Assembly (NCBI GenBank): GCA_018015315.1
Contig: GCA_018015315.1_3629.1
From: a phage
Reading direction: 5' to 3' (one strand)
DNA: 64,000 bases
Below, one piece after another: positions 4,331-63,563 of the stretch; position 1 is the first letter of the stretch; every line of letters begins with the position of its first letter. The notes below the pieces were generated by a model, which worked only from the letters and a program-made list of their open reading frames with translations, made no database searches and was not told the origin of the DNA. The translations under genes and the position numbers were made by a program.

Positions 4331-4780
4331 GTGTTGAGCAAACGTGAATGCGACAGCATTAGCCTGAATTCTTATAAGAAACAATGGTTTGGAGTGGAAG
4401 TTTGCCGACTGCGGCTAGGCTCCTACCTGAACTTCGTTTATTATGAAAGCGATAGTCGTATCGTTTCTTATGAAGTGTTCTACACTAAGAACACCTTCGA
4501 ACTGCGCCGTAAAGTGGATGGTGGGAGAACTACCCCCCAGAATAATTGGGAAACTATCCTACCTACAGATGTTATAGGAAGTCCACTGAATGTATCTGAA
4601 GATGAAAATCTTATGGTTCATGCTATGATGGGACTTGACAGCTTAGAGCTGGCGATCTATGATATGTCCATCGAAGCAGTTAAGCTGGACTACATCGAAA
4701 ACACTTTAGAGGAAGGTATCAAGAAGTTTCTCAGTGAGAAATTAAAAGACCACTTTCATAAGGAGCTATACCTGTTATGA
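4331..4780 (+). CDS. hypothetical protein
   Basis: 149-aa ORF, GTG start with AAGGAGAGAG RBS; same strand and tight spacing as neighbours. Confidence 0.5.
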   Translation: MLSKRECDSISLNSYKKQWFGVEVCRLRLGSYLNFVYYESDSRIVSYEVFYTKNTFELRRKVDGGRTTPQNNWETILPTDVIGSPLNVSEDENLMVHAMMGLDSLELAIYDMSIEAVKLDYIENTLEEGIKKFLSEKLKDHFHKELYLL

Positions 4781-5022
4781 AGACCCGTAAAGAACGTAAC
4801 AAAATTTTACCTGGAGCTCTAGAACACCTGATGAAGTGCAGATCTATTTGGCACTCTGCCAAGGAAGGGCAGAAGGTGGTTGTGGTTAGTGACAATACCA
4901 ACCCGTTTGGAGATTATACCACTATGATGGCCCCGTATGTCCGTGATGGTGTTGTGGAAGTGGTCCCTTACAACGGTCTGCATGAACGGCACTTTGAAAG
5001 CACTTTGCTAGTGGAGCTATAG
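4777..5022 (+). CDS. hypothetical protein
   Basis: 81-aa ORF with start/stop overlap to the upstream gene. Confidence 0.45.
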   Translation: MKTRKERNKILPGALEHLMKCRSIWHSAKEGQKVVVVSDNTNPFGDYTTMMAPYVRDGVVEVVPYNGLHERHFESTLLVEL

Positions 5023-5024
5023 TC

Positions 5025-5591
5025 ATGGCGGTCAATGTGGCTTACAACACAGGAAAGCTTGACAGAGACATTGGGTGTCTTGTCCTTTCAGATACAGAAG
5101 AGTATTGGGGTTATGGGTTGCTGTCAGACCCACACCCGAGCAACCTTGTATCAACAGTGCTATACCGCTACGACCCTGTGCCAACGGTACACGACAAAGA
5201 CATTCACGACCTCCGGATCAAGTGTCTGGAAGATCTGCTGAACAATGGTTGCAACGATCTGCGGGTAGCCAAAGAGAAGCTTACAAACATTCACAAAGAG
5301 GAAGTGATGAGCACCCTCAGTAAGAGATCAGTGCACAAAAAGATGATGCTGAACTTTGCAATGGGTATCTACATGGACGGGTATAAGGGAGGTGATCCGA
5401 TTCTCAAGCTTCGCTGCCCAACACTGTGGGAAAGAGTGGTTGACAGTAAGGACGGTACTGCCCTGCTTGAGCTACACACTGCAGGTTGGATTTGGAGGTA
5501 TGTGGACGGATACCCTCTGTGGGCATGTGGACCTGGGGAATTTGTTGACAGACCTAGCGCGGTGGTGGACTTACTATTGCAGTTTGAATAA
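5025..5591 (+). CDS. hypothetical protein
   Basis: 188-aa ORF in the operon frame series; shorter overlapping ORFs in other frames judged spurious. Confidence 0.5.
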   Translation: MAVNVAYNTGKLDRDIGCLVLSDTEEYWGYGLLSDPHPSNLVSTVLYRYDPVPTVHDKDIHDLRIKCLEDLLNNGCNDLRVAKEKLTNIHKEEVMSTLSKRSVHKKMMLNFAMGIYMDGYKGGDPILKLRCPTLWERVVDSKDGTALLELHTAGWIWRYVDGYPLWACGPGEFVDRPSAVVDLLLQFE

Positions 5592-5648
5592 AAAGGTGAG
5601 TTATAAGGTATTCATACACCTACCAACAATACAACAGGAGAGACTGAG

Positions 5649-5924
5649 ATGACGAAAGAAGAGGCCGACGTATTAGATTTTGCACTAGAGGCTACGCAGG
5701 AGGCTTTGGTGTTAGCTTGGAAAATGAACCAGCGTGCTGCAGAATGCAACCGCCGCATCAATGAGATTCTGGGCATGTCCATGTATGATTTCACTATGCA
5801 TGCTGGAGAGATTCCTGAATTAACTGCAGAGATGAATGATCTTGACAATAAGATTAATATCATTCTGAAGACAGCAGAAACAACTCACCAAACCGCCCGT
5901 AAATTTATCAACGAGAAGGTGTGA
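5649..5924 (+). CDS. hypothetical protein
   Basis: 91-aa ORF; AGGAGAGA RBS upstream. Confidence 0.5.
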   Translation: MTKEEADVLDFALEATQEALVLAWKMNQRAAECNRRINEILGMSMYDFTMHAGEIPELTAEMNDLDNKINIILKTAETTHQTARKFINEKV

Positions 5925-6400
5925 ATATGGACTACAGCTACTGCGGGGAAGAAGTTCCTTTTAACTACAGCAATCTTACCACGAGCAATCCATATGAGAC
6001 TCGCCACGGCACACACATCATTGCCATTGACTTTGATGGAACGTTTAATGCGAGCCCTTTCATCTTCTCCCGCCTGATCAGGGATCTGAAGAAGGAGAGG
6101 TGGACAGTCTACCTTGTGACTTCTCGGTTCATCACTCAAGACAACGTGGACATTGAATATTGGCGCAAGGAGCTTGATGTTGGGGTGTTTTATACTGGCG
6201 GTGTTCAGAAGGCAGCCTACCTGGCGCAGTTTGATATCTACCCAGATATCTGGATTGATGATTCTCCGGCATGTATTCCGGCTAAAAATCAGTTAGAGTT
6301 TGCAATGAAGGAGATTGAGTACAAGTCTGATGCTAAGCGGAACGGATGGCCCTTTATTATTGAAGATTACCCAGACCCTGAGCCGGAGAAAGAGCCATGA
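5921..6400 (+). CDS. HAD-superfamily phosphatase (putative nucleotidase or 3'-phosphatase)
   Basis: HAD motif I DxDGT (IAIDFDGTF), motif II (VYLVTSR), motif IV (IWIDDS); 159 aa. Confidence 0.65.
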   Translation: MNMDYSYCGEEVPFNYSNLTTSNPYETRHGTHIIAIDFDGTFNASPFIFSRLIRDLKKERWTVYLVTSRFITQDNVDIEYWRKELDVGVFYTGGVQKAAYLAQFDIYPDIWIDDSPACIPAKNQLEFAMKEIEYKSDAKRNGWPFIIEDYPDPEPEKEP

Positions 6401-6567
6401 AACGAAGATATCATTACCTGATGTGGAAGTTATATCATGGTGCTGCTAAAGCTTACCGCACCGTGTTTAGCAATGACAATCACTGCATTATGTTACACCT
6501 TACCGCCATTAAACATCACAATGAGTGGATTCGTGCAATCGTGATAGGTGACAAAGACTTTAAGTAA
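6397..6567 (+). CDS. small hypothetical protein (56 aa)
   Basis: ATG overlaps the stop of the HAD gene (ATGA); open to TAA at 6565-6567; below the track size cutoff. Confidence 0.3.
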   Translation: MKRRYHYLMWKLYHGAAKAYRTVFSNDNHCIMLHLTAIKHHNEWIRAIVIGDKDFK

Positions 6568-6618
6568 GGTATGCCTCAAAAACGTAATAGTGTGGCTTTC
6601 TAGATGGAGACTGACTAA

Positions 6619-6999
6619 ATGTGCAAGTGTAAATCATATAATTGGAAAGTGAAAGGTGCCAAGCATCCAAATGTTATCGTTGATGTGCCTAAAAAGCTCC
6701 GTGACGGCAAAAAACGTGTGTGCCTTGATAAGTGCATGGCTAAACCTATCATGAGTCTATGGGCGGCAGGATTGAAAACTCTAAACTGCTGCTGTGGTCA
6801 TAACAAAGATGTTCCAAGCATCATTATCCCAGAAGATGCAGATCCTAAAGCTTATGCCAAAATACTGACCCGCTATCCCAGCACCTTCCTGATCGGAAAA
6901 TGGTGTCACGATGAACTTCAATGGTGGATAGCCTATGGTAGTATAGGCACTACTTTTGGCTTCCCAGCTTTGTCAGAGCGCTATGTCAAAGTGTCATAA
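6619..6999 (+). CDS. Cys-rich hypothetical protein (possible Zn-binding)
   Basis: 126-aa ORF with CKCK, CLDKC and CCCGH cysteine clusters. Confidence 0.5.
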   Translation: MCKCKSYNWKVKGAKHPNVIVDVPKKLRDGKKRVCLDKCMAKPIMSLWAAGLKTLNCCCGHNKDVPSIIIPEDADPKAYAKILTRYPSTFLIGKWCHDELQWWIAYGSIGTTFGFPALSERYVKVS

Positions 7000-7007
7000 T
7001 AGAATTT

Positions 7008-7028
7008 AAGGCCTCAAACGAGGCCTGT
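7008..7028 (+). terminator. putative hairpin terminator after the 6619..6999 gene
   Basis: AGGCCTC-AAAC-GAGGCCT perfect 7-bp stem; downstream T-tract is weak. Confidence 0.35.
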
Positions 7029-7103
7029 GCCTTCATAAATTGCCCCACCCTATGTGATTGCCTTCCTGAAACAAACACCCTCTTAAATCGCTTAAAATTA
7101 AGC

Positions 7104-7132
7104 TTGACATCAACGCAGAATTTTTATATGAT
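7104..7132 (+). promoter_or_regulatory. sigma70-like promoter
   Basis: TTGACA (7104-7109), 17-bp spacer, TATGAT (7127-7132); about 30 bp upstream of the 7163 start. Confidence 0.55.
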
Positions 7133-7162
7133 TATCCCACCAACCAAGCAGAGGAGACTGTC

Positions 7163-7570
7163 ATGGATAATCTTACAAATATAAAAGTCGAAATTGTTAA
7201 GCTAAAATTCTTAGGCTTTCGAGACCCCAGCTCTATAACAGCTATAATCATGGATACCCATTTTACAGCAGGCAAGGAATACACTGCCGTCCGTTATACT
7301 TGCGGGGATCATAAATCTGCCTACAGTGTTAATACAAACCTCGGTGAGGGATATTTTATCCGTGATATTACGGATCATTTGTGGGGAATGTGGGAGTTGG
7401 TGAAGGAAGAGGGTAACTCACTCCCCAAAGAGATTTGGGTGCATACCTTCCACACAGGTAAGTTTGGAGGCACGGAACATAAATCTATTCACTACGATGA
7501 AGAAAGCGCCCTCAAGCAACAAGCTGTTCTTGGCGGGTCTGTAGAAAAATTTATTAAATGCGAGGACTGA
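7163..7570 (+). CDS. hypothetical protein
   Basis: 135-aa ORF downstream of the promoter; AGAGGAG RBS. Confidence 0.55.
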   Translation: MDNLTNIKVEIVKLKFLGFRDPSSITAIIMDTHFTAGKEYTAVRYTCGDHKSAYSVNTNLGEGYFIRDITDHLWGMWELVKEEGNSLPKEIWVHTFHTGKFGGTEHKSIHYDEESALKQQAVLGGSVEKFIKCED

Positions 7571-7573
7571 TAA

Positions 7574-7774
7574 ATGGCTGATTTTTGTAAAGACTGTTCT
7601 GAAGAGTTGTTTGGTCACGATTGCGGAGATCTGGAAGGACTAATCACAGAAGATCAGTGGAAGGAAGGTTATGCAGCACCTGTTATCTGCGAAGGTTGCG
7701 GCTATATCTACGTTGACCACAAAGGTAAACGCGTCCAGCCGTCTGAAGATGGGTCGTGTTGGGAATATTATTAA
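7574..7774 (+). CDS. small Zn-ribbon-like protein
   Basis: 66 aa with CxxC...CxxC (CKDC, CEGC). Confidence 0.5.
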   Translation: MADFCKDCSEELFGHDCGDLEGLITEDQWKEGYAAPVICEGCGYIYVDHKGKRVQPSEDGSCWEYY

Positions 7775-7786
7775 TTATAAAAAGAA

Positions 7787-7810
7787 AGGGGCCGTTTGGC
7801 CCCTTTTTAT
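7787..7810. terminator. bidirectional rho-independent terminator between convergent genes
   Basis: AGGGGCC-GTTT-GGCCCCT stem flanked by A-tract on one side and T-tract on the other, so a U-run follows the hairpin on both strands. Confidence 0.7.
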
Positions 7811-55960: not shown

Positions 55961-56037
55961 TGGTCTCCACGGAGTGATTCGAACACTCGACCTCCTGATC
56001 CCAAATCAGGCGCTCTACCAAGCTGAGCTACGCGGAG
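55961..56037 (-). tRNA. tRNA-Pro (anticodon UGG)
   Basis: Hand-folded cloverleaf: acceptor CTCCGCG/CGTGGAG, D-stem GCTC/GAGC, anticodon stem CCTGA/TCAGG, loop TTTGGGA, T-arm GAGTG-TTCGAAT-CACTC, CCA encoded. Confidence 0.75.
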
Positions 56038-56048
56038 TATTTACTATT

Positions 56049-56123
56049 TGGTGGCCCTGGGTGGAATTGAACCACCGTCTGGCGATTATGAGTCGCTTGC
56101 TTGAACCTTCCAGCTACAGGGCC
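56049..56123 (-). tRNA. tRNA-Met (anticodon CAU; could be Ile-lysidine type)
   Basis: Acceptor GGCCCTG/CAGGGCC, anticodon loop CTCATAA, T-arm GGTGG-TTCAATT-CCACC, CCA encoded; D-stem only 3 bp. Confidence 0.65.
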
Positions 56124-56124
56124 T

Positions 56125-56200
56125 TGGTGCTGATGGCAGGACTTGAACCTGCAACATATTGATTACAAATCAATTGCACTACCAATTGTGCTACATCAGC
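56125..56200 (-). tRNA. tRNA-Thr (anticodon UGU)
   Basis: Perfect cloverleaf: acceptor GCTGATG/CATCAGC, D-stem GCAC/GTGC, anticodon stem ATTGA/TCAAT, loop TTTGTAA, T-arm GCAGG-TTCAAGT-CCTGC, CCA. Confidence 0.8.
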
Positions 56201-56205
56201 AAAAA

Positions 56206-56304
56206 GGTGCTAGGTGATGGAATCGAACCATCTATGTATTCAACGACTACCTCGTCTATTTTCAGGATTAAAAATCCTCGCCCTTGCCAAAGGGCTTACC
56301 TAGC
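56206..56304 (-). tRNA. atypical tRNA-like gene (possible anticodon UUU, ~30-nt extra region)
   Basis: Perfect acceptor (GCTAGGT/ACCTAGC), D-arm (GCCC-TTTGGCAA-GGGC) and T-arm (GATGG-TTCGATT-CCATC), but 4-bp anticodon stem and an unusually long region before the T-arm. Confidence 0.4.
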
Positions 56305-56402
56305 TCAGTATGTTGACCATGTTGCTAGTCGGCGATGACGACTGTAACATTTGATAATCCGGTTCTGCTTCCGGCTTTCGCTTAATTACAAGGTCAACAA
56401 TG

Positions 56403-56493
56403 TGGCAGAGGATAATGGAATCGAACCATCATCGAGTCATCCTCAACGGGACGGTTTTCAAGACCGCTTGAGCACCATTGCTCCCTACCCTCT
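56403..56493 (-). tRNA. tRNA-Ser (anticodon UGA), long variable arm
   Basis: Anticodon arm GCGGT-CTTGAAA-ACCGT, variable-arm hairpin, T-arm GATGG-TTCGATT-CCATT, acceptor AGAGGGT/ATCCTCT with one G-U pair, CCA encoded; D-arm spacing unusual. Confidence 0.6.
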
Positions 56494-56610
56494 TTTATTA
56501 TAAACAATACTGATAATGACACTGATTTTCGAGCAGTTAGTGACTAGTATAAACGACGATAAATACCAATGCCATTATCTGTATGATTTATGCATCTAAA
56601 AATATAAATT

Positions 56611-56697
56611 TGGTGGGGAGTGGTGGAGTCGAACCACCCGAGTCGCAATGACAATAGATTTACAGTCTACACCGCTACCTCTACGGGATAACTCCCC
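56611..56697 (-). tRNA. tRNA-Tyr (anticodon GUA), long variable arm
   Basis: Acceptor GGGGAGT/ACTCCCC, anticodon arm GTAGA-CTGTAAA-TCTAT, T-arm GGTGG-TTCGACT-CCACC, CCA encoded. Confidence 0.7.
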
Positions 56698-56701
56698 AAT
56701 T

Positions 56702-56776
56702 TGGCACCCCGTACTGGACTCGAACCAGTGTCAACGGCTTAGAAGGCCGCTGCTTTATCCACTAAGCTAACAGGGC
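56702..56776 (-). tRNA. tRNA-Arg (anticodon UCU)
   Basis: D-stem GCTT/AAGC, anticodon arm GCGGC-CTTCTAA-GCCGT, T-arm ACTGG-TTCGAGT-CCAGT, CCA encoded. Confidence 0.75.
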
Positions 56777-59710: not shown

Positions 59711-60265
59711 TTACTCCCCGCTGTCAATAGCAAGACTCATTGCAATAAGGTATGCCTCTTCTAATGGTAAGAGTCTCCCCCACACATCCCAACCGACATC
59801 AAACTGCCTGCCAAACAACTGCTGTGTGGTTCCGTGAGCATGACCGAACAGTTGGACTGATCCGTGAGGCTTTCTGTTCCACTTTGCAAACTGGTAATGG
59901 CTCATACAGATCAAATTCTTGTTGTGGCGAAGCTCGTAATAATCTACAACCTCATGACCGAACTCTTTCATAATTCTGACAGTCGTCCTTGTGTCATGGT
60001 TACCACGAACAAGAATAATATGTCCGTTCAACATATTTAGAACATCTGGGAGCAATTTGTTGATATTCTTATCATTAGTGCACGCAATATCTCCCAAGTG
60101 AAACACAGTGTCTGCAGGCGACACAACAGAGTTCCACTCGGCGATGATTCCCGCATTCATACTGTCAAGATTGTGATCATACTGAGATCTGTGTTTTTGA
60201 CATGAATCAAACTCCATGACCCGCTGGTGGAGAAAGTGTGTGTCGCTTGTTACAAAGTATTTCAT
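59711..60265 (-). CDS. calcineurin-like metallophosphoesterase
   Basis: Start at the internal ATG (MKYFVTSDTHF); motifs D-x-H (SDTH), GD (HLGDIA), GNHD (RGNHDT), GHxH (GHAHG). Confidence 0.7.
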   Translation of the reverse strand: MKYFVTSDTHFLHQRVMEFDSCQKHRSQYDHNLDSMNAGIIAEWNSVVSPADTVFHLGDIACTNDKNINKLLPDVLNMLNGHIILVRGNHDTRTTVRIMKEFGHEVVDYYELRHNKNLICMSHYQFAKWNRKPHGSVQLFGHAHGTTQQLFGRQFDVGWDVWGRLLPLEEAYLIAMSLAIDSGE

Positions 60266-60272
60266 ACATTCC

Positions 60273-60683
60273 TCATTTAAGTTTAATGCAGTTTTTAAGC
60301 TGGCGTTCCATACGATCCACAACCTTGTCTGGAACATCATGAATGCTTTTATTACCGTGGCGGTTTTCAACCACGATCACGGTATAACTATACCCATGAC
60401 TGATTGCCATGTCAACATATTCCTGCACATGTTTTTCTTTTGTAAACGTATTACTTACCACGATACGGTCGTATCCCATACGCATCATATCTTCTACGTT
60501 ATCTTTGCACCATTTTGCTGCGAGTGTTACTTTACTTGCATCCCAGTTGTAATTGCCGTCATCGTCATACCAGAACATATCGTTCTCAAAATGTGGATAC
60601 AGACCTTCTAAAGATAGCGCATTTGCCAGTGTTGATTTGCCAGACCCTGGCAGACCACGCACGATATATAGCATTTTAGACAT
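60273..60683 (-). CDS. P-loop polynucleotide kinase-like protein
   Basis: Start at ATG (MSKMLYIV) with GGAGG RBS; Walker A GLPGSGKST at residues 10-18; ~136 aa, the size of a standalone 5'-kinase domain. Confidence 0.65.
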   Translation of the reverse strand: MSKMLYIVRGLPGSGKSTLANALSLEGLYPHFENDMFWYDDDGNYNWDASKVTLAAKWCKDNVEDMMRMGYDRIVVSNTFTKEKHVQEYVDMAISHGYSYTVIVVENRHGNKSIHDVPDKVVDRMERQLKNCIKLK

Positions 60684-60711
60684 AGCAATCCTCCGTTTTA
60701 ATTTTAATGAT

Positions 60712-60740
60712 AGTATACCTAACTGTTTTGTTAATTTCAA
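60712..60740 (-). promoter_or_regulatory. sigma70-like promoter for the kinase/phosphoesterase pair
   Basis: Minus strand: TTGAAA (60735-60740), 17-bp spacer, TATACT (60712-60717). Confidence 0.55.
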
Positions 60741-60783
60741 GTGTTGACACTAGGTTATTTGTGTGGCAGGATAGACTGACAAA

Positions 60784-61719
60784 ATGACAAATGAGGAACG
60801 TATGATGAAGTATTTTAATGCAGATGACCTAGTAGACAAAGGTCTTGTAACCAGTCGGTATTATCCAGATCTTGGATTAAAGATCTATAAATATGCCAGA
60901 AAAGTATTCTACAACAATCTGTGGCATTTGTCTCCGCGTTTACTGGAGTGCCGAGGTATTGTTGTTGGCAATGAGGGGAATGTTGTGGCATGGCCTTTCA
61001 CAAAAGTATTCAACTTAGGAGAAAACTCCACCAACCTACCGGACAGTAAACTTGTTACTGCGGTAGAGAAAAAGAACGGATTCCTCGGTGTGGTATCATC
61101 TCATAAAGGTGAACTATTGTTCTCAACAACCGGGTCTCTTGATTCTCCATATTGTAACCTTGCAAAGGAAACCATCCAAGAGCAATGTGGTAATTTAGAT
61201 CTTATCAAGAAGGTTATGGGCAATGAAAACATGACATTCATGTTTGAAATTTGTCACCCTTCAGATCCGCATATTGTTCAAGAAGACCATGGCGCATATT
61301 TGATAGGTTGCAGATATAATGATTCTGGAATAATGCTACCAGAAGCAGCTTTAGATGGGATTGCCAAATACCTTGGTGCAAAACGTCCTCACACTGTGCG
61401 TGAAATCCCGTTCAGCTATGCAAAAGAATTAGCTGCAGAAACAAGGGGCGAAGGGTATATGATCCGTAAGCCTTACTACCCTTATGACCTGCAGCTGAAG
61501 ATCAAGTCTCCATACTATTTGGCACGGAAGGCCGTAATGAGAGGTAAAGCATGGAAGATTTGGGATGACGATATTTTTAAACGTGTTGACGAGGAGTTTT
61601 ACGGTATGGTAAAATTTATTCGTAGCAACTATACAGAAGATGTGTGGAATTGCTTATTAGAGCAGGAGCGTCGCGAGATACTGGACTGCTATTTCCACAA
61701 CGAGGACTACATGAAATGA
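60784..61719 (+). CDS. RNA ligase (Rnl-like nucleotidyltransferase)
   Basis: 311 aa; candidate motif I lysine in VEKKNGFLG (KxxG); divergent from the kinase/phosphoesterase operon. Confidence 0.6.
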   Translation: MTNEERMMKYFNADDLVDKGLVTSRYYPDLGLKIYKYARKVFYNNLWHLSPRLLECRGIVVGNEGNVVAWPFTKVFNLGENSTNLPDSKLVTAVEKKNGFLGVVSSHKGELLFSTTGSLDSPYCNLAKETIQEQCGNLDLIKKVMGNENMTFMFEICHPSDPHIVQEDHGAYLIGCRYNDSGIMLPEAALDGIAKYLGAKRPHTVREIPFSYAKELAAETRGEGYMIRKPYYPYDLQLKIKSPYYLARKAVMRGKAWKIWDDDIFKRVDEEFYGMVKFIRSNYTEDVWNCLLEQERREILDCYFHNEDYMK

Positions 61720-62066
61720 AGAAGTGGATTGTGTGGCTTGATGATTTTAGAGATCCGTCAGATTATGGACTCCCAGACGCTCTGTGGCTAAAGAATTCTT
61801 CTGAATTTATGGATTTTCTTAATGATAAGAGAAAGCTCTACAGACGCGTATCTGAATGGTATTTTGACAATGATCTAGGTGAAGTTCTTGAAGGGTACGA
61901 CTGCTTCTCTGCGCTAGAGGAGAAACTTGTATTCGGAAAGCCACCACTTATTGACAACGTGATTATTTTCGTGCATACTTCTAATCCATCGGCAGCTCGT
62001 AAATTTATGCTTGCTGCTGACTCATTCAAGAAGTTTGGAATAGAGATCAAACAAAACATCTACTGA
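61716..62066 (+). CDS. hypothetical protein coupled to the RNA ligase
   Basis: ATG overlaps the ligase stop (ATGA); 117 aa. Confidence 0.5.
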   Translation: MKKWIVWLDDFRDPSDYGLPDALWLKNSSEFMDFLNDKRKLYRRVSEWYFDNDLGEVLEGYDCFSALEEKLVFGKPPLIDNVIIFVHTSNPSAARKFMLAADSFKKFGIEIKQNIY

Positions 62067-62074
62067 GGACACTT

Positions 62075-62836
62075 ATGCGACGACTGATTATTATCTCCGG
62101 TGCTGGTTTGAGCGCTGAATCTGGTATTCCCACTTTCCGATCTGGTAGCACTGCAATGTGGGAGAATTTCAGCATCGATGAGGTGTGCAACATCCACACC
62201 TTTGCCAAGAACTACTATAAGGTGCATGACTTTTACAATGCACGTCGTGTAGCTCTGGGCAGTGTTGATCCTAACCTTGCACATCTTCGGATCGCTGAGT
62301 GGTATTCCCGCTGGTCTGGTCGTGTGATCAACCTTACCACCAATGTAGATGATTTGCTGGAGCGTGCTGGTGTAAAACATGAAGATATTTTACATGTCCA
62401 CGGGTATTTGCCTGAAATCACCTACGAAGATGCTGAAGGTAATGATGTAATTAAAAATATCGGATACACGGAGGTAGATACAGGCAAGTATACCTGGGTT
62501 AAGCCCAATGTAGTGTTCTTCGGTGAGGTTGCTCCTAAGTATACAGACATGTATGACCTGTTGACATCTCTCACAAGCAATGATATGGTGATCCTAGTAG
62601 GTTGTTCTAACACAGTTATTAATTTTAACTGGGAATTGTTTCCTGCTACTTGTAAAGGCACAAAACTGCTGATTGTAAACAAGTATGACTCGCAGAGTGC
62701 AGATGGAAGTGGCATTTCACGTAGCGACCTTTATCAATATGAGGATCGCGGGATCCCTGTATGGTTTAACGGTGCTGTTGACGCTTTCTCTGATAAAGCA
62801 TTTATTGAAACTGTAGAAAACTTTATGGAACTTTAA
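62075..62836 (+). CDS. Sir2-family (sirtuin-like) NAD-dependent enzyme lacking the Zn-ribbon
   Basis: Sirtuin motifs GAGLSAESGIPTFRS, FYNARR, TTNVDD, HVHG, VVFFGE, ILVGCS; the CxxC...CxxC zinc module is absent. Confidence 0.75.
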   Translation: MRRLIIISGAGLSAESGIPTFRSGSTAMWENFSIDEVCNIHTFAKNYYKVHDFYNARRVALGSVDPNLAHLRIAEWYSRWSGRVINLTTNVDDLLERAGVKHEDILHVHGYLPEITYEDAEGNDVIKNIGYTEVDTGKYTWVKPNVVFFGEVAPKYTDMYDLLTSLTSNDMVILVGCSNTVINFNWELFPATCKGTKLLIVNKYDSQSADGSGISRSDLYQYEDRGIPVWFNGAVDAFSDKAFIETVENFMEL

Positions 62837-62849
62837 AAGGAGACCTTTA

Positions 62850-63563
62850 ATGCTGAATACTAAACTGATCGACAACCTGGAAAAACTGTCTCAGCCTGAA
62901 AACTACCTTTGGTCTGCCAACTGGGTGGAAAACTGGAACCGTGTGGCAGCTAAAGTGAAAAAATCATACACACCATTCGAATTACAGCTTAGCTTCATTG
63001 AGGAAGAGTTCAATGAGGTTTTGGAAGAGCTGGAGAAAGGTGATGGTGGAGATCACCTGCTAAAAGAGGCCTGCGATCTTCACGTTGTCACAAGTTATGC
63101 CGCTTATCTTGTTAATGATAATCACGAAAAGTGGTCAAACCTGTTTGATAATCCACGAGGTCTTAAGTTCAAGATCGGTGAGTTCTATGATACACTGATC
63201 GCTGCGAAAAACACATCCAAGCAAAGAGCGTCAGCTTACCGCTTAGCGGAGTTGTCAACAGCTTTGCTGTTCCAGCTTCGCGGCGATGTGTGTGGGATGA
63301 TGCGGAAGGTTCTCAAATCTAATGACAGTAAGTTTGCACGGATCAACCATCTACGATATTCTCACAGTGCCAGTGCAGATATGTCTACTGAATTGCTCAT
63401 AGAGTTAGAGATTGAAGATCTTGAGCGTCGTTTTGGTGGTCGCTACGAAGGTTTCGTTGCTAAAGAGGAGTTCTACAACGGTAATAAAGTTATTATATTC
63501 CTTGACAGTAAAGGTAAGATTATGAAGCCTTCGAGCTTCAAGGATGTAACAGAGTATATTTAA
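62850..63563 (+). CDS. MazG-like nucleoside triphosphate pyrophosphohydrolase
   Basis: 237 aa; EEEFNEVLEELEKGD...KEACD acidic metal-binding motif typical of all-alpha NTP pyrophosphatases. Confidence 0.55.
   Translation: MLNTKLIDNLEKLSQPENYLWSANWVENWNRVAAKVKKSYTPFELQLSFIEEEFNEVLEELEKGDGGDHLLKEACDLHVVTSYAAYLVNDNHEKWSNLFDNPRGLKFKIGEFYDTLIAAKNTSKQRASAYRLAELSTALLFQLRGDVCGMMRKVLKSNDSKFARINHLRYSHSASADMSTELLIELEIEDLERRFGGRYEGFVAKEEFYNGNKVIIFLDSKGKIMKPSSFKDVTEYI

Follow-up and report, generated by a model that had tools for sequence, protein, structure and literature searches.

The pair of genes described here lies in the early region of a phage genome, within a 64,000-nucleotide stretch of DNA (GenBank assembly GCA_018015315.1) that we refer to throughout as the window. 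The phage is a Vequintavirus, an rV5-like myophage of Escherichia coli. The first gene of the pair encodes a small HAD-like protein, which we call the mini-HAD, and the second a protein of only 56 residues (Table 1). Their neighbours in the window are early genes to which no function has been assigned. The setting of the mini-HAD gene is that of an early operon, with sigma-70-like promoters, a terminator and a promoter annotation in rV5. The rightward early block closes with a GC-rich hairpin and there meets a leftward tail-fibre gene; rV5 has terminators annotated for both strands at the equivalent position. Some 54 kb away, a separate cluster of RNA-repair and NAD-ADPr genes spans 59711..63563, the annotated counterparts of which are rV5 gp076-081. 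Although this cluster is outside the gene pair, it decides how the mini-HAD is read.

Table 1. The early gene pair, its surroundings and the distant kinase cluster in the window
Feature	Position	Strand	Evidence or remark
rV5 gp020 homologue, 91 aa	5649..5924	+	pN/pS 0.037; PHROG 12604; annotated in rV5; same early block, upstream of mini-HAD
Shine-Dalgarno-like GAGAAGG	5913..5919	+	7 nt spacing to ATG 5927; favours ATG 5927 over GTG 5921
mini-HAD gene, 157 aa, rV5 gp021 homologue	5927..6400	+	ORF, pN/pS, PHROG 4919, motifs, AF2 model
Coupling junction	6385..6400	+	Junction alignment of 13 relatives
56-aa gene, rV5 ORF22/gp022 homologue, PHROG 12006	6397..6567	+	pN/pS, intactness, synteny, PHROG, AF2
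rV5 gp024 homologue, Cys-rich, 126 aa	6619..6999	+	PHROG 12958, E=1.1e-89
GC-rich hairpin	7785..7806	-	Terminator scan; rV5 terminator annotation at equivalent position
Metallophosphoesterase (calcineurin-like)	59711-60262	-	Pfam Metallophos, 1.3e-5
P-loop kinase, stand-alone	60273-60686	-	Pfam AAA_33, 1e-10
Rnl1-family RNA ligase	60784-61719	+	Pfam RNA_lig_T4_1, 9e-15
cREC	61716-62066	+	cREC_REC, 9e-14
Sir2	62075-62836	+	SIR2, 7e-28
MazG-like	62850-63563	+	rV5 gp076-081 annotation

The mini-HAD gene is a real coding ORF under purifying selection, its in-frame pN/pS among 13 aligned relatives being 0.032. The original prediction had it beginning at GTG 5921, but ATG 5927 is the likelier start: the Shine-Dalgarno-like sequence at the right distance from it is identical in 13 of 13 aligned relatives, and ATG, not GTG, is the start annotated for the homologue in rV5. 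Two PHROG profiles recognize the protein, PHROG 4919 (phage proteins) over residues 25-147 (E=1.8e-51) and PHROG 4256 (2.4e-18), while its first 30 residues and acidic C-terminal tail are lineage-specific.

What kind of protein is it? All four HAD catalytic motifs are kept: D35xD37xT39 (motif I), T65 (motif II), K95 (motif III) and D111D112 (motif IV). Two residues, D35 and K95, never vary across 139 diverse homologues, while conservation is at least 90% at each of D37, T39, T65, R67, D111 and D112; D111-D112 is invariant within one subset of the homologues (A3). In the AF2 model (pLDDT 90.2, pTM 0.81), the strands of which span residues 31-35, 60-65, 86-89 and 108-110, motif I (D35-F-D37-G-T39) directly follows the first strand, T65 closes the second with R67 two residues on, and D111-D112 comes directly after the last. 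The modelled core is tiny, about 90 residues, with neither a cap nor a flap hairpin. Because there are only four strands and no flap, the fold assignment leans heavily on the motifs.

Database searches give a fainter picture. Pfam returned nothing significant for the window protein, NCBIfam HAD-IIB scored 12.8 bits (E=0.092) against a cut-off of 41.8, and none of the curated HAD models in these two collections reaches threshold on it. Among the 139 family members, the Cof-type HAD-IIB model matches 15 (best 2.1e-5), HAD-SF-IIB 14, the BT0820-family model NF046079 nine (best E 0.0027; the window protein itself is not one of them) and Pfam Hydrolase_3 one (1.9e-5). A profile of the family aligns with BT0820 (2OBB, 2obb_A) over the whole core, from DFDGT to IDD, with E=0.01. 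The best Foldseek matches of the model in the PDB are weak and mostly HAD enzymes, the P-domain of CopA, YrbI, BT0820, KDN9P phosphatase, AphA and T4 Pnkp being among the top ones. Sequence searches of the PDB, whether with the single protein or a six-sequence profile, gave chance matches only (a flavivirus E protein and a lectin), which we set aside. It is thus the motifs, the fold of the model and weak matches at the level of the family, not any curated model, that give the HAD assignment. Taken together, they make the 157-residue protein a probable minimal member of the HAD (DxDxT acyl-phosphatase) superfamily, and the complete catalytic set makes it a probable phosphatase. To that extent the original prediction of a HAD phosphatase is plausible.

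The small ORF that follows had been put forward as a gene missed by annotation. It is indeed a gene. It was missing from the ORF track on which the prediction was based, but it is not new: it is ORF22/gp022 of rV5, and nearly all annotated relatives carry it as a 'hypothetical protein'. Scepticism is a reasonable starting point with an ORF of 56 codons, since chance ORFs of 30-60 codons are plentiful in all frames around it, Pfam and NCBIfam searches of the protein find no match, and a search of 5.8 billion proteins yields a mere eight matching clusters. Yet it is most improbable that the ORF arose by chance or through faulty annotation and is never translated. Across the 13 aligned relatives pN/pS is 0.22 in frame and 0.76-0.93 off frame, and variable sites fall 13/9/21 over the three codon positions, so that third positions vary most. 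The ORF is full length in 116 of 116 phage records even though amino-acid identity ranges over 77-96%. Its Shine-Dalgarno sequence is conserved. Homologues at 45-48% identity or lower, sharing a conserved N-terminal motif, sit directly 3' of a HAD-like gene in three further lineages (loci L029-L032, L110 and L111), and in related lineages the gp024 homologue always follows on their 3' side (L028, L110, L111). PHROG 12006 matches the protein over residues 1-56 of 56 (E=1.2e-40), and AF2 confidently predicts a two-helix hairpin (helices 2-24 and 27-50, pLDDT 82). rV5 ORF23, which runs over gp022 in another frame, has no coding signature; the off-frame values above apply to it.

The junction between the two genes has its own story. 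A GGAG at 6385-6388, 8 nt before ATG 6397, is present upstream of the small ORF in all aligned relatives, and in the window the mini-HAD stop and the small-ORF start share the ATGA at 6397-6400, as the original prediction had noted. That overlap is not a fixed feature among the relatives. Position 6389 of the window is polymorphic: an A here encodes Lys155, whereas a T in rV5 creates a TAA stop, so the overlap exists because a single T/A difference removes the earlier stop of rV5. The window, nomine, FV3, ECP26 and SYGMH1 read GAG-AAA-GAG-CCA-TGA; rV5 and many relatives read GAG-TAA, followed by a 5-nt gap. What persists is the pair itself: in four diverged lineages the two genes keep their synteny, whether they overlap by 4 or 11 nt or are separated by 5 or about 55 nt. 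Judged by this arrangement, the mini-HAD and 56-residue genes are a conserved and probably translationally coupled pair in the rightward early block.

Our best explanation of the locus as a whole, to which we give a little better than an even chance, is a coupled early pair comprising a minimal HAD phosphatase and a small hairpin partner. By analogy with T4 Pnkp, the residue roles of which (PMC3592404) serve as our template, and with other HADs, Asp35 would attack a phosphomonoester to form an aspartyl-phosphate, with Asp37 as the general acid/base, Thr65 and Lys95 holding the phosphate, and Asp111/Asp112 aiding Mg2+ binding; water would then release the phosphate. The 56-residue protein would be translated from the mRNA of the phosphatase through coupled initiation; on the simplest reading it would partner or modulate that enzyme.

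T4 Pnkp brings us to the functional part of the original prediction, that the HAD protein could supply in trans the 3'-phosphatase activity that T4 fuses to its kinase. In full, the mini-HAD and the stand-alone 5'-kinase would between them make up the equivalent of T4 Pnkp and, with the Rnl1 ligase, repair tRNA. The two genes were said to lie far apart, and so they do, about 54 kb from each other, in different transcription units and with the kinase on the other strand. We regard this role as distinctly unlikely. In its favour, the domain has the full catalytic set and, like HADs acting on macromolecules, no cap, the mini-HAD and T4 Pnkp have in common a T/S-x-R signature after motif II (S211-G-R213 in the latter), several depositors have labelled the mini-HAD gene 'polynucleotide kinase', and both kinase and mini-HAD are found in the genomes of the Vequintavirinae and of Pseudomonas phage phiPsa300. 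Set against this is the company the kinase keeps. It adjoins a metallophosphoesterase, with cREC, Sir2 and MazG nearby, and this set has been taken to suffice for end healing (PMC9503650); Iyer et al. 2022 (PMC9503650) describe the neighbourhood of the kinase in phage V5 as a predicted system of RNA repair, and no HAD is part of it as published for V5-type phages. With phosphoesterase, Rnl1, cREC, Sir2 and MazG already flanking the kinase, a link to the mini-HAD is not needed to account for this genome. Kuravirus SU10, moreover, carries a mini-HAD with no detectable kinase or ligase.

The wider family tells us more. It comprises 1,498 clusters at 50% identity, and in our best explanation the mini-HAD represents this large, so far unnamed, mainly phage-borne family, whose members have a core about 90 residues long. 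An alignment of 139 sequences proved too diverse to search for loci, and a 72-sequence subset anchored on DIWIDDxP was used in its stead; the 80 viral loci it yielded are accordingly biased towards members with that motif. In none of these 80 loci, with that bias, does a kinase, Rnl1 or cREC gene lie within 6 kb of the mini-HAD. Links to RNA repair do exist, three among roughly 100 mini-HAD contexts examined. One member is fused to a cREC cyclic-phosphate domain, with metallophosphoesterase and NAD-salvage genes directly after it. Another, P0094, is fused to a P-loop segment and begins 2 nt past the genes for RtcB and an RNA ligase; it is the sole exception in the wider family to the missing linkage with a P-loop 5'-kinase in the window and the 80 loci, and no kinase family could be assigned to its P-loop segment. 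In a third (L086), RtcB is 0.7 kb upstream. An 'RNA ligase' neighbour at L077 proved to be only an HNH-like ORF of 106 residues. The mini-HAD, we conclude, is not a dedicated subunit of the distant kinase; a role as its partner is possible but is not favoured by the layout of this genome. What still speaks for the original idea is the capless domain and the rare cREC and RtcB links.

The commonest informative neighbours of stand-alone mini-HADs are genes of nucleotide metabolism: within 6 kb in the 80 loci we find ThyX five times, MazG eight times and class II ribonucleotide reductase (RNR) seven times. Could the mini-HAD be a (deoxy)nucleoside-monophosphate phosphatase that reshapes early nucleotide pools, maybe acting after MazG-type pyrophosphatases, with oligomers making up for the absent cap? 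Unrelated phages place it beside these genes and those for glutaredoxin, thymidylate kinase and DNA polymerase, and in Klebsiella phage BIS47 a MazG gene runs 4 nt into the start of the mini-HAD gene. Pfam 5-nucleotidase (PF06189) weakly matches the window protein (E=0.088) and four family members (best E 0.0014), two structural neighbours, YrbI and KDN9P phosphatase, lack a cap and act on small molecules, and tandem duplication of the domain in P0010, P0027 and P0056 suggests a dimeric unit. Such neighbours are, however, typical of any early or middle region of a phage genome, no nucleotidase family gives a significant match, and the fusions described below, together with the cREC fusion and RtcB placement, are hard to fit to a pool enzyme. 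We consider a nucleotidase unlikely, if well short of remote.

Those fusions join 13 of the 61 family ORFs from the 80 viral loci to proteins of the capsid interior, namely Phage_portal (3e-109), a lambda-type portal (5.5e-46) and prohead protease S78 (4.6e-25), and some also carry an ADP-ribosyltransferase (ART) domain (ADPrib_exo_Tox, 2.5e-11; DRAT, 3.3e-4). Two other signals did not survive scrutiny: a DEDD exonuclease in the C-terminal half of P0052, which neither Pfam nor PDB searches supported, and antisense ORF clusters (7, 16 and 17) in high-GC loci, spurious products of crude ORF calling that we ignored. Published work interprets fusions of this sort as effectors that are packaged and then injected (PMC9503650). 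Seen this way, the mini-HAD would be a counter-defence effector, early or virion-delivered, stripping phosphate from some host protein or immune signal, and the gene in the window does sit amid early genes of no assigned function. The Vequintavirus mini-HAD is nevertheless a stand-alone protein, and known anti-defence families do not match it. We find a protein or signalling-molecule phosphatase of any kind rather unlikely and this particular effector role quite improbable, although the latter is compatible with, and does not exclude, a substrate at the ends of nucleic acids.

Such a substrate is our own guess, the clues being the three cREC and RtcB contexts given above. Like the phosphatase domain of T4 Pnkp, the minimal HAD of the coupled pair may be an end-cleaning enzyme, here free-standing, that removes a terminal 3'(2')-phosphate from RNA or DNA or acts on an ADP-ribose-type nucleotide derivative; we put this somewhat short of an even chance. 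That the protein does something else altogether, or is inactive, seems a long shot. More tentatively, and with doubt outweighing conviction, we can imagine an undescribed, phage-wide family of minimal HAD phosphatases (core of about 90 residues, no cap or flap) deployed as infection begins, whether from an early gene with its own dedicated hairpin partner of 56 residues or from within the capsid as part of portal, prohead protease and ART fusions. These enzymes would clean terminal phosphates off damaged RNA or DNA ends, or off molecules derived from NAD or ADP-ribose, in opposition to host nucleases or immune signalling.

The finding of two genes here is modest, for both have long been annotated as hypothetical in rV5-like phages. 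The family is another matter: about 1,500 clusters of a very small HAD-like phosphatase with neither a Pfam model nor a studied member, and fusions (to portal, prohead protease, ART and cREC domains and to a P-loop segment beside RtcB and RNA ligase) that generate testable hypotheses about end-healing or counter-defence enzymes. rV5-like phages are in use in phage therapy and biocontrol collections, which gives practical value to assigning functions to their conserved early genes.

How does the mini-HAD measure up to systems we know? Among the comparisons made in this analysis, its model has the smallest putative HAD catalytic core. The C-terminal 3'-phosphatase of T4 Pnkp (PseT) has its residues in the same order, D165/D167 corresponding to D35/D37, S211 to T65, K258 to K95 and D277/D278 to D111/D112. 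Both are capless, phage-encoded and have an arginine two residues past the motif II hydroxyl residue. But the T4 domain is about 150 residues long and fused to its kinase, whereas the mini-HAD core stands alone, and T4 Pnkp is only at rank 27 among the weak Foldseek matches. Comparison of the family profile with the single T4 Pnkp sequence by hhalign, a test of low power, aligned motif I to motif II correctly at 1% probability. Pfam HAD_PNKP (PF25109) and PNK3P do not match the window protein at E<=1, and PNK-phosphatase families are absent from the matches of the 139 members in Pfam (E<=0.01) and among the 25 NCBIfam families listed (E<=0.05).

A different solution to end healing comes from Clostridium thermocellum Pnkp, where a metallophosphoesterase-type 2',3'-phosphatase module is found beside a 5'-kinase and ligase (PMC3675462). 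Its counterpart in the window is the metallophosphoesterase adjoining the kinase. With a binuclear metal centre and no covalent intermediate, this module is unrelated to the mini-HAD in both fold and chemistry; it is a competitor for the 3'-phosphatase role and not a relative.

The capless C0 tetramers KdsC/YrbI and KDN9P phosphatase (Foldseek ranks 3, 5, 6 and 8-10) have the same cap-free core as the mini-HAD but differ in their length of about 165-175 residues, their flap and their tetramer-built active site. In sequence the signal is very faint, the KdsC model matching two of the 139 members (best E 0.012), and no LPS or sialic-acid genes occur alongside. By profile, the nearest solved structure is BT0820 of Bacteroides thetaiotaomicron (142 residues, Foldseek rank 4), which is likewise small, single-domain and capless and has its S/T-x-R aligned with that of the mini-HAD. 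All the BT0820 scores are below curated thresholds, and BT0820 is bacterial where the mini-HAD family is mostly phage. The literature on BT0820/2OBB yielded nothing of relevance, nor did the polyvalent-protein paper as regards a HAD domain, and because BT0820 has no known substrate the resemblance is uninformative about function.

Finally, there are the 'Swiss-army-knife' HADs of Burroughs and Aravind, stand-alone proteins from RNA-repair systems of phages which, as cited in PMC7824862 and PMC9503650, are predicted to remove the linear terminal phosphates left after cyclic-phosphate opening. Pfam matches reported for the window protein and its 139 relatives are weak and to models other than HAD_SAK. 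Like the mini-HAD, the Swiss-army-knife HADs are predicted phage HAD phosphatases that stand alone.

The two overlapping ORFs are real genes, they form a conserved pair, and the larger very probably encodes a minimal HAD-type catalytic domain (mini-HAD) from a big, uncharacterised phage family. Their presence was already known from public records. Megablast searches with 5000-7600 and 5600-6700 matched some 117-119 phage records with identities of 91-95%; every one is a Vequintavirus (rV5-like Escherichia coli myophage), and some are named 'Campylobacter phage'. Around 15 unannotated 'Campylobacter phage' deposits (MG065635-MG065690) match this stretch of an rV5-like E. coli phage at 93-94% identity; their host labels look doubtful. 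The rV5 counterparts are ORF21/gp021 and ORF22/gp022, each a 'hypothetical protein', and nearly every annotated relative carries both, so the small ORF that the original prediction described as missed was absent from that reader's track only. Several records call the intact HAD-like gene 'polynucleotide kinase', despite its having no kinase domain. JLBYU08 (locus L002, 2422-2894) splits it into two CDSs, each a 'putative polynucleotide kinase'; since the aligned region is 1-2 bases longer there than in rV5-type relatives, the split probably reflects a frameshift or an error in sequencing.

Around the large gene's start the window reads GAGAAGGTGTGAATATG. The upstream gene stops at 5922-5924, and GAGAAGG at 5913-5919 is spaced 7 nt from the ATG at 5927, equivalent to the start annotated in rV5; spacing and annotation together point to a protein of 157 aa. 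At the other end, the predicted ATGA overlap of stop and start is there in the sequence (6397-6400), and an alignment of 13 relatives showed that a single base decides whether it exists. The window, nomine, FV3, ECP26 and SYGMH1 have GAG-AAA-GAG-CCA-TGA; rV5-type genomes have GAG-TAA, a 154-aa protein and a gap of 5 nt before the small ORF. GGAG lies 8 nt 5' of the small-ORF ATG in every one of the 13, and the pair is probably translationally coupled. The alignment also picked out residue 66 of the HAD-like protein (codon 6122-6124), next to motif II Thr65, which is Ser (VTSR) in the window and Phage 203 and Phe (VTFR) in 11 of the 13, and residue 58, Arg in the window and Gly in the others.

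Nei-Gojobori counts across 13 sequences gave the large gene a pN/pS of 0.032 (variable sites at the three codon positions, 8/5/75) and the small ORF one of 0.22 in frame (13/9/21), against 0.93 and 0.76 in its other frames. These off-frame values (0.76-0.93) lend no support to an equivalent of rV5 ORF23 (gp023), which would overlie gp022 in another frame. In 116/116 records tblastn recovered the whole of the small ORF, with 77-96% of its amino acids identical. It persists further out: four IMG/VR contigs (L029-L032), with HAD-like proteins only 58-60% identical to ours, carry a 60-61-aa homologue (45-48% identity) overlapping the HAD-gene end by 11 nt; an E. coli-labelled assembly (L110) has a 53-aa homologue, again with an ATGA overlap at its start; and in locus L111 the homologue follows some 55 nt after the HAD-like gene. 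The small protein, a predicted two-helix hairpin (AF2, pLDDT 82) that has a conserved M-[KR]-x-[KR]-Y-[YH]-[HY]-[FL]-M-W-K motif at its N-terminus, forms just 8 clusters among 5.8 billion proteins. Between it and the Cys-rich gene that always comes next, some relatives have an extra ~75-90 bp, for example Phage 203 (L013:1283-1371), whose ~1180-base match length is shared by slur16, rV5_ev147/158, WalterGehring and bov11CS3; others lack ~20 bp present in the window (about 6568-6590).

Curated libraries do not call the large protein a HAD. Its best Pfam match is 5-nucleotidase at E=0.088, NCBIfam offers HAD-IIB at E=0.092, its PHROGs (4919 and 4256) are both of 'unknown function', and we found no Pfam model for the family. 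A word-indexed search returned only 6 relatives; an exhaustive profile search with a cut-off of E<=1e-3 returned 1,498 clusters, in which most proteins are stand-alone and 90-130 aa long. D35 and K95 occur in every one of 139 diverse members, and conservation is 90% or higher at D37, T39, V64, T65, R67, W109, D111, D112 and P114; these residues make up the four HAD motifs, arranged in the canonical order. In the AF2 model (pLDDT 90.2, pTM 0.81) strands 31-35, 60-65 and 108-110 terminate at motifs I, II and IV, and K95 lies in the helix preceding strand 4. Foldseek against the PDB gave nothing at E<=1e-3; the top of its list is mostly HAD (CopA P-domain, mannosyl-3-phosphoglycerate phosphatase, YrbI, BT0820/2OBB, KDN9P phosphatase, AphA). 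The family profile aligns with BT0820 (2obb_A) from DFDGT to IDD at E=0.01, and members match Cof-type HAD-IIB (15, best 2e-5), HAD-SF-IIB (14) and BT0820-family HAD phosphatase (9) models. From sequence and predicted fold, we conclude that this is in all likelihood a HAD-superfamily protein of minimal size, which lacks both cap and flap but keeps its catalytic set intact.

Coordinates of the features discussed
Feature	Location	Strand	Evidence or remark
Large gene, as in ORF listing	5921..6400	+	GTG start, 159 aa
Large gene, start as in rV5	5927..6400	+	gp021 homologue
Small ORF	6397..6567	+	ATG start, 56 aa; gp022 homologue
rV5 ORF23 equivalent	6437-6544		rejected
Cys-rich 126-aa protein	6619-6999		rV5 gp024 homologue (MCKCKSY..., CCCGHN motif); PHROG 12958 (unknown function); no Pfam or NCBIfam match; 'methyltransferase TYW3' in one record
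Promoter-like sites, near-consensus sigma-70	4635-4663, 7104-7132	+	TTGACA-17-TATGAT, 11/12; inside early block
rV5 promoter P20 equivalent	about 5545-5577		annotated in rV5; missed by promoter scan
Hairpin terminator	7785-7806		end of early block
tRNA cluster	55961-56776		Pro, Met, Thr, Ser, Tyr, Arg
tRNA-like gene	56206-56304	-	ARAGORN, 99 nt, four-base anticodon (atcc); inside tRNA cluster; none annotated in rV5 at the equivalent place, between tRNA-Thr and tRNA-Ser
Calcineurin-like phosphoesterase	59711-60262	-	Metallophos E=1.3e-5
P-loop kinase	60273-60686	-	AAA_33 E=1e-10
Rnl1-family RNA ligase	60784-61719	+	E=9e-15; stop overlaps cREC start (61716-61719)
cREC (cyclic-phosphate-processing)	61716-62066		E=9e-14
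Sir2	kinase neighbourhood		E=7e-28
MazG-like gene	kinase neighbourhood		rV5 gp081
Portal/protease fusions	L095:1460-4048, L075, L076, L067:80-1714, L070:4216-6303, L062:2748-3722
Further portal/protease fusions	L063, L085, L101, L103, L106, L107
[mini-HAD + cREC], metallophosphoesterase	L112:6001-7270		NadM-Nudix and NAMPT genes downstream
RNA ligase, RtcB, [mini-HAD + P-loop]	L115:2348-5422		consecutive

The mini-HAD gene is one of a series of small, rightward early genes, a block with sigma-70-type promoters and a terminator at its end. The stand-alone kinase, for which it had been proposed to supply the 3'-phosphatase, does indeed lie far away, at 54 kb, near the tRNA cluster. It has a metallophosphoesterase beside it and so is not without a phosphoesterase of its own, in what is predicted to be a complete RNA-repair/NAD-ADPr cluster (59711-63563), in agreement with the neighbourhood published for phage V5 (Iyer et al., PMC9503650). 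We fetched 80 IMG/VR loci by the pattern DIWIDDxP, called their ORFs and searched these with seed proteins. Within 6 kb of the mini-HAD there was no kinase, Rnl1, cREC, Sir2 or T4 Pnkp (0 each), and one metallophosphoesterase homologue. Across the whole genome of Kuravirus SU10, where the mini-HAD gene comes after that for DNA polymerase, tblastn detected the mini-HAD and no kinase, Rnl1, cREC or Pnkp. Evidence in the opposite direction comes from rare relatives with additional domains. One (P0076) joins mini-HAD to cREC (E=2.7e-20), and at L112 such a protein is followed directly by a metallophosphoesterase; another (P0094) joins it to a P-loop segment, to which no P-loop type could be assigned, and begins 2 nt after RtcB, itself after an RNA ligase. 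The mechanistic link to the kinase is only partly supported: HAD motifs and the cREC- and RtcB-linked fusions favour it, and the kinase's own phosphoesterase and the kinase-free 80 loci speak against it. Terminal phosphates on RNA or DNA, or ADP-ribose-type molecules, are the leading, if tentative, candidate for the substrate; within that reading, partnership with this phage's own kinase is improbable.

Within the same 6 kb, the 80 loci yielded ThyX (5), MazG (8), class II RNR (7) and RtcB (1, at L086, 0.7 kb upstream of the mini-HAD). Annotated genomes give a like picture: ThyX, Grx, MazG and RNR are neighbours in Rhizobium phage RHph_N3_19, and in Klebsiella phage BIS47 a MazG gene shares 4 nt with the start of the mini-HAD gene. 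That the mini-HAD is a nucleotidase we consider somewhat unlikely. These loci gave 61 family ORFs, and in 13 of them the mini-HAD is fused to a capsid-interior protein, in the orders HK97-type portal (E=3e-109), mini-HAD, ADP-ribosyltransferase-like C-terminus (ADPrib_exo_Tox 2.5e-11; DRAT 3.3e-4); lambda-type portal (E=5.5e-46), mini-HAD; and prohead protease S78 (E=4.6e-25), mini-HAD. BFVD also returned fusions labelled 'XkdF' and 'head maturation protease'. Capsid-protein fusions of this kind have been interpreted as packaged, injected effectors (PMC9503650), which suggests that the fused mini-HADs are capsid-packaged phosphatase effectors; HAD domains and mini-HAD fusions go unmentioned in the polyvalent-protein survey. 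A protein or signal phosphatase is, on balance, an unlikely identity for the mini-HAD, and some other activity, or none, is slightly less likely again.

How does the mini-HAD compare with T4 Pnkp, the T4 polynucleotide kinase-phosphatase? No PNK-phosphatase model matches the window protein or its relatives, T4 Pnkp ranks 27 in the Foldseek list, and hhalign of the family against its verified sequence gave a 1% probability; the same alignment pairs DxDGT...SGR of T4 Pnkp with DxDxT...TxR of the mini-HAD. In T4 Pnkp, D165 is the nucleophile and D167 the acid/base, S211 and K258 contact the phosphate, and D165 and D278 are on Mg2+ (PMC3592404). By analogy, mini-HAD chemistry would follow these residue roles. 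The finding amounts to a divergent form of an enzyme kind that is already known.
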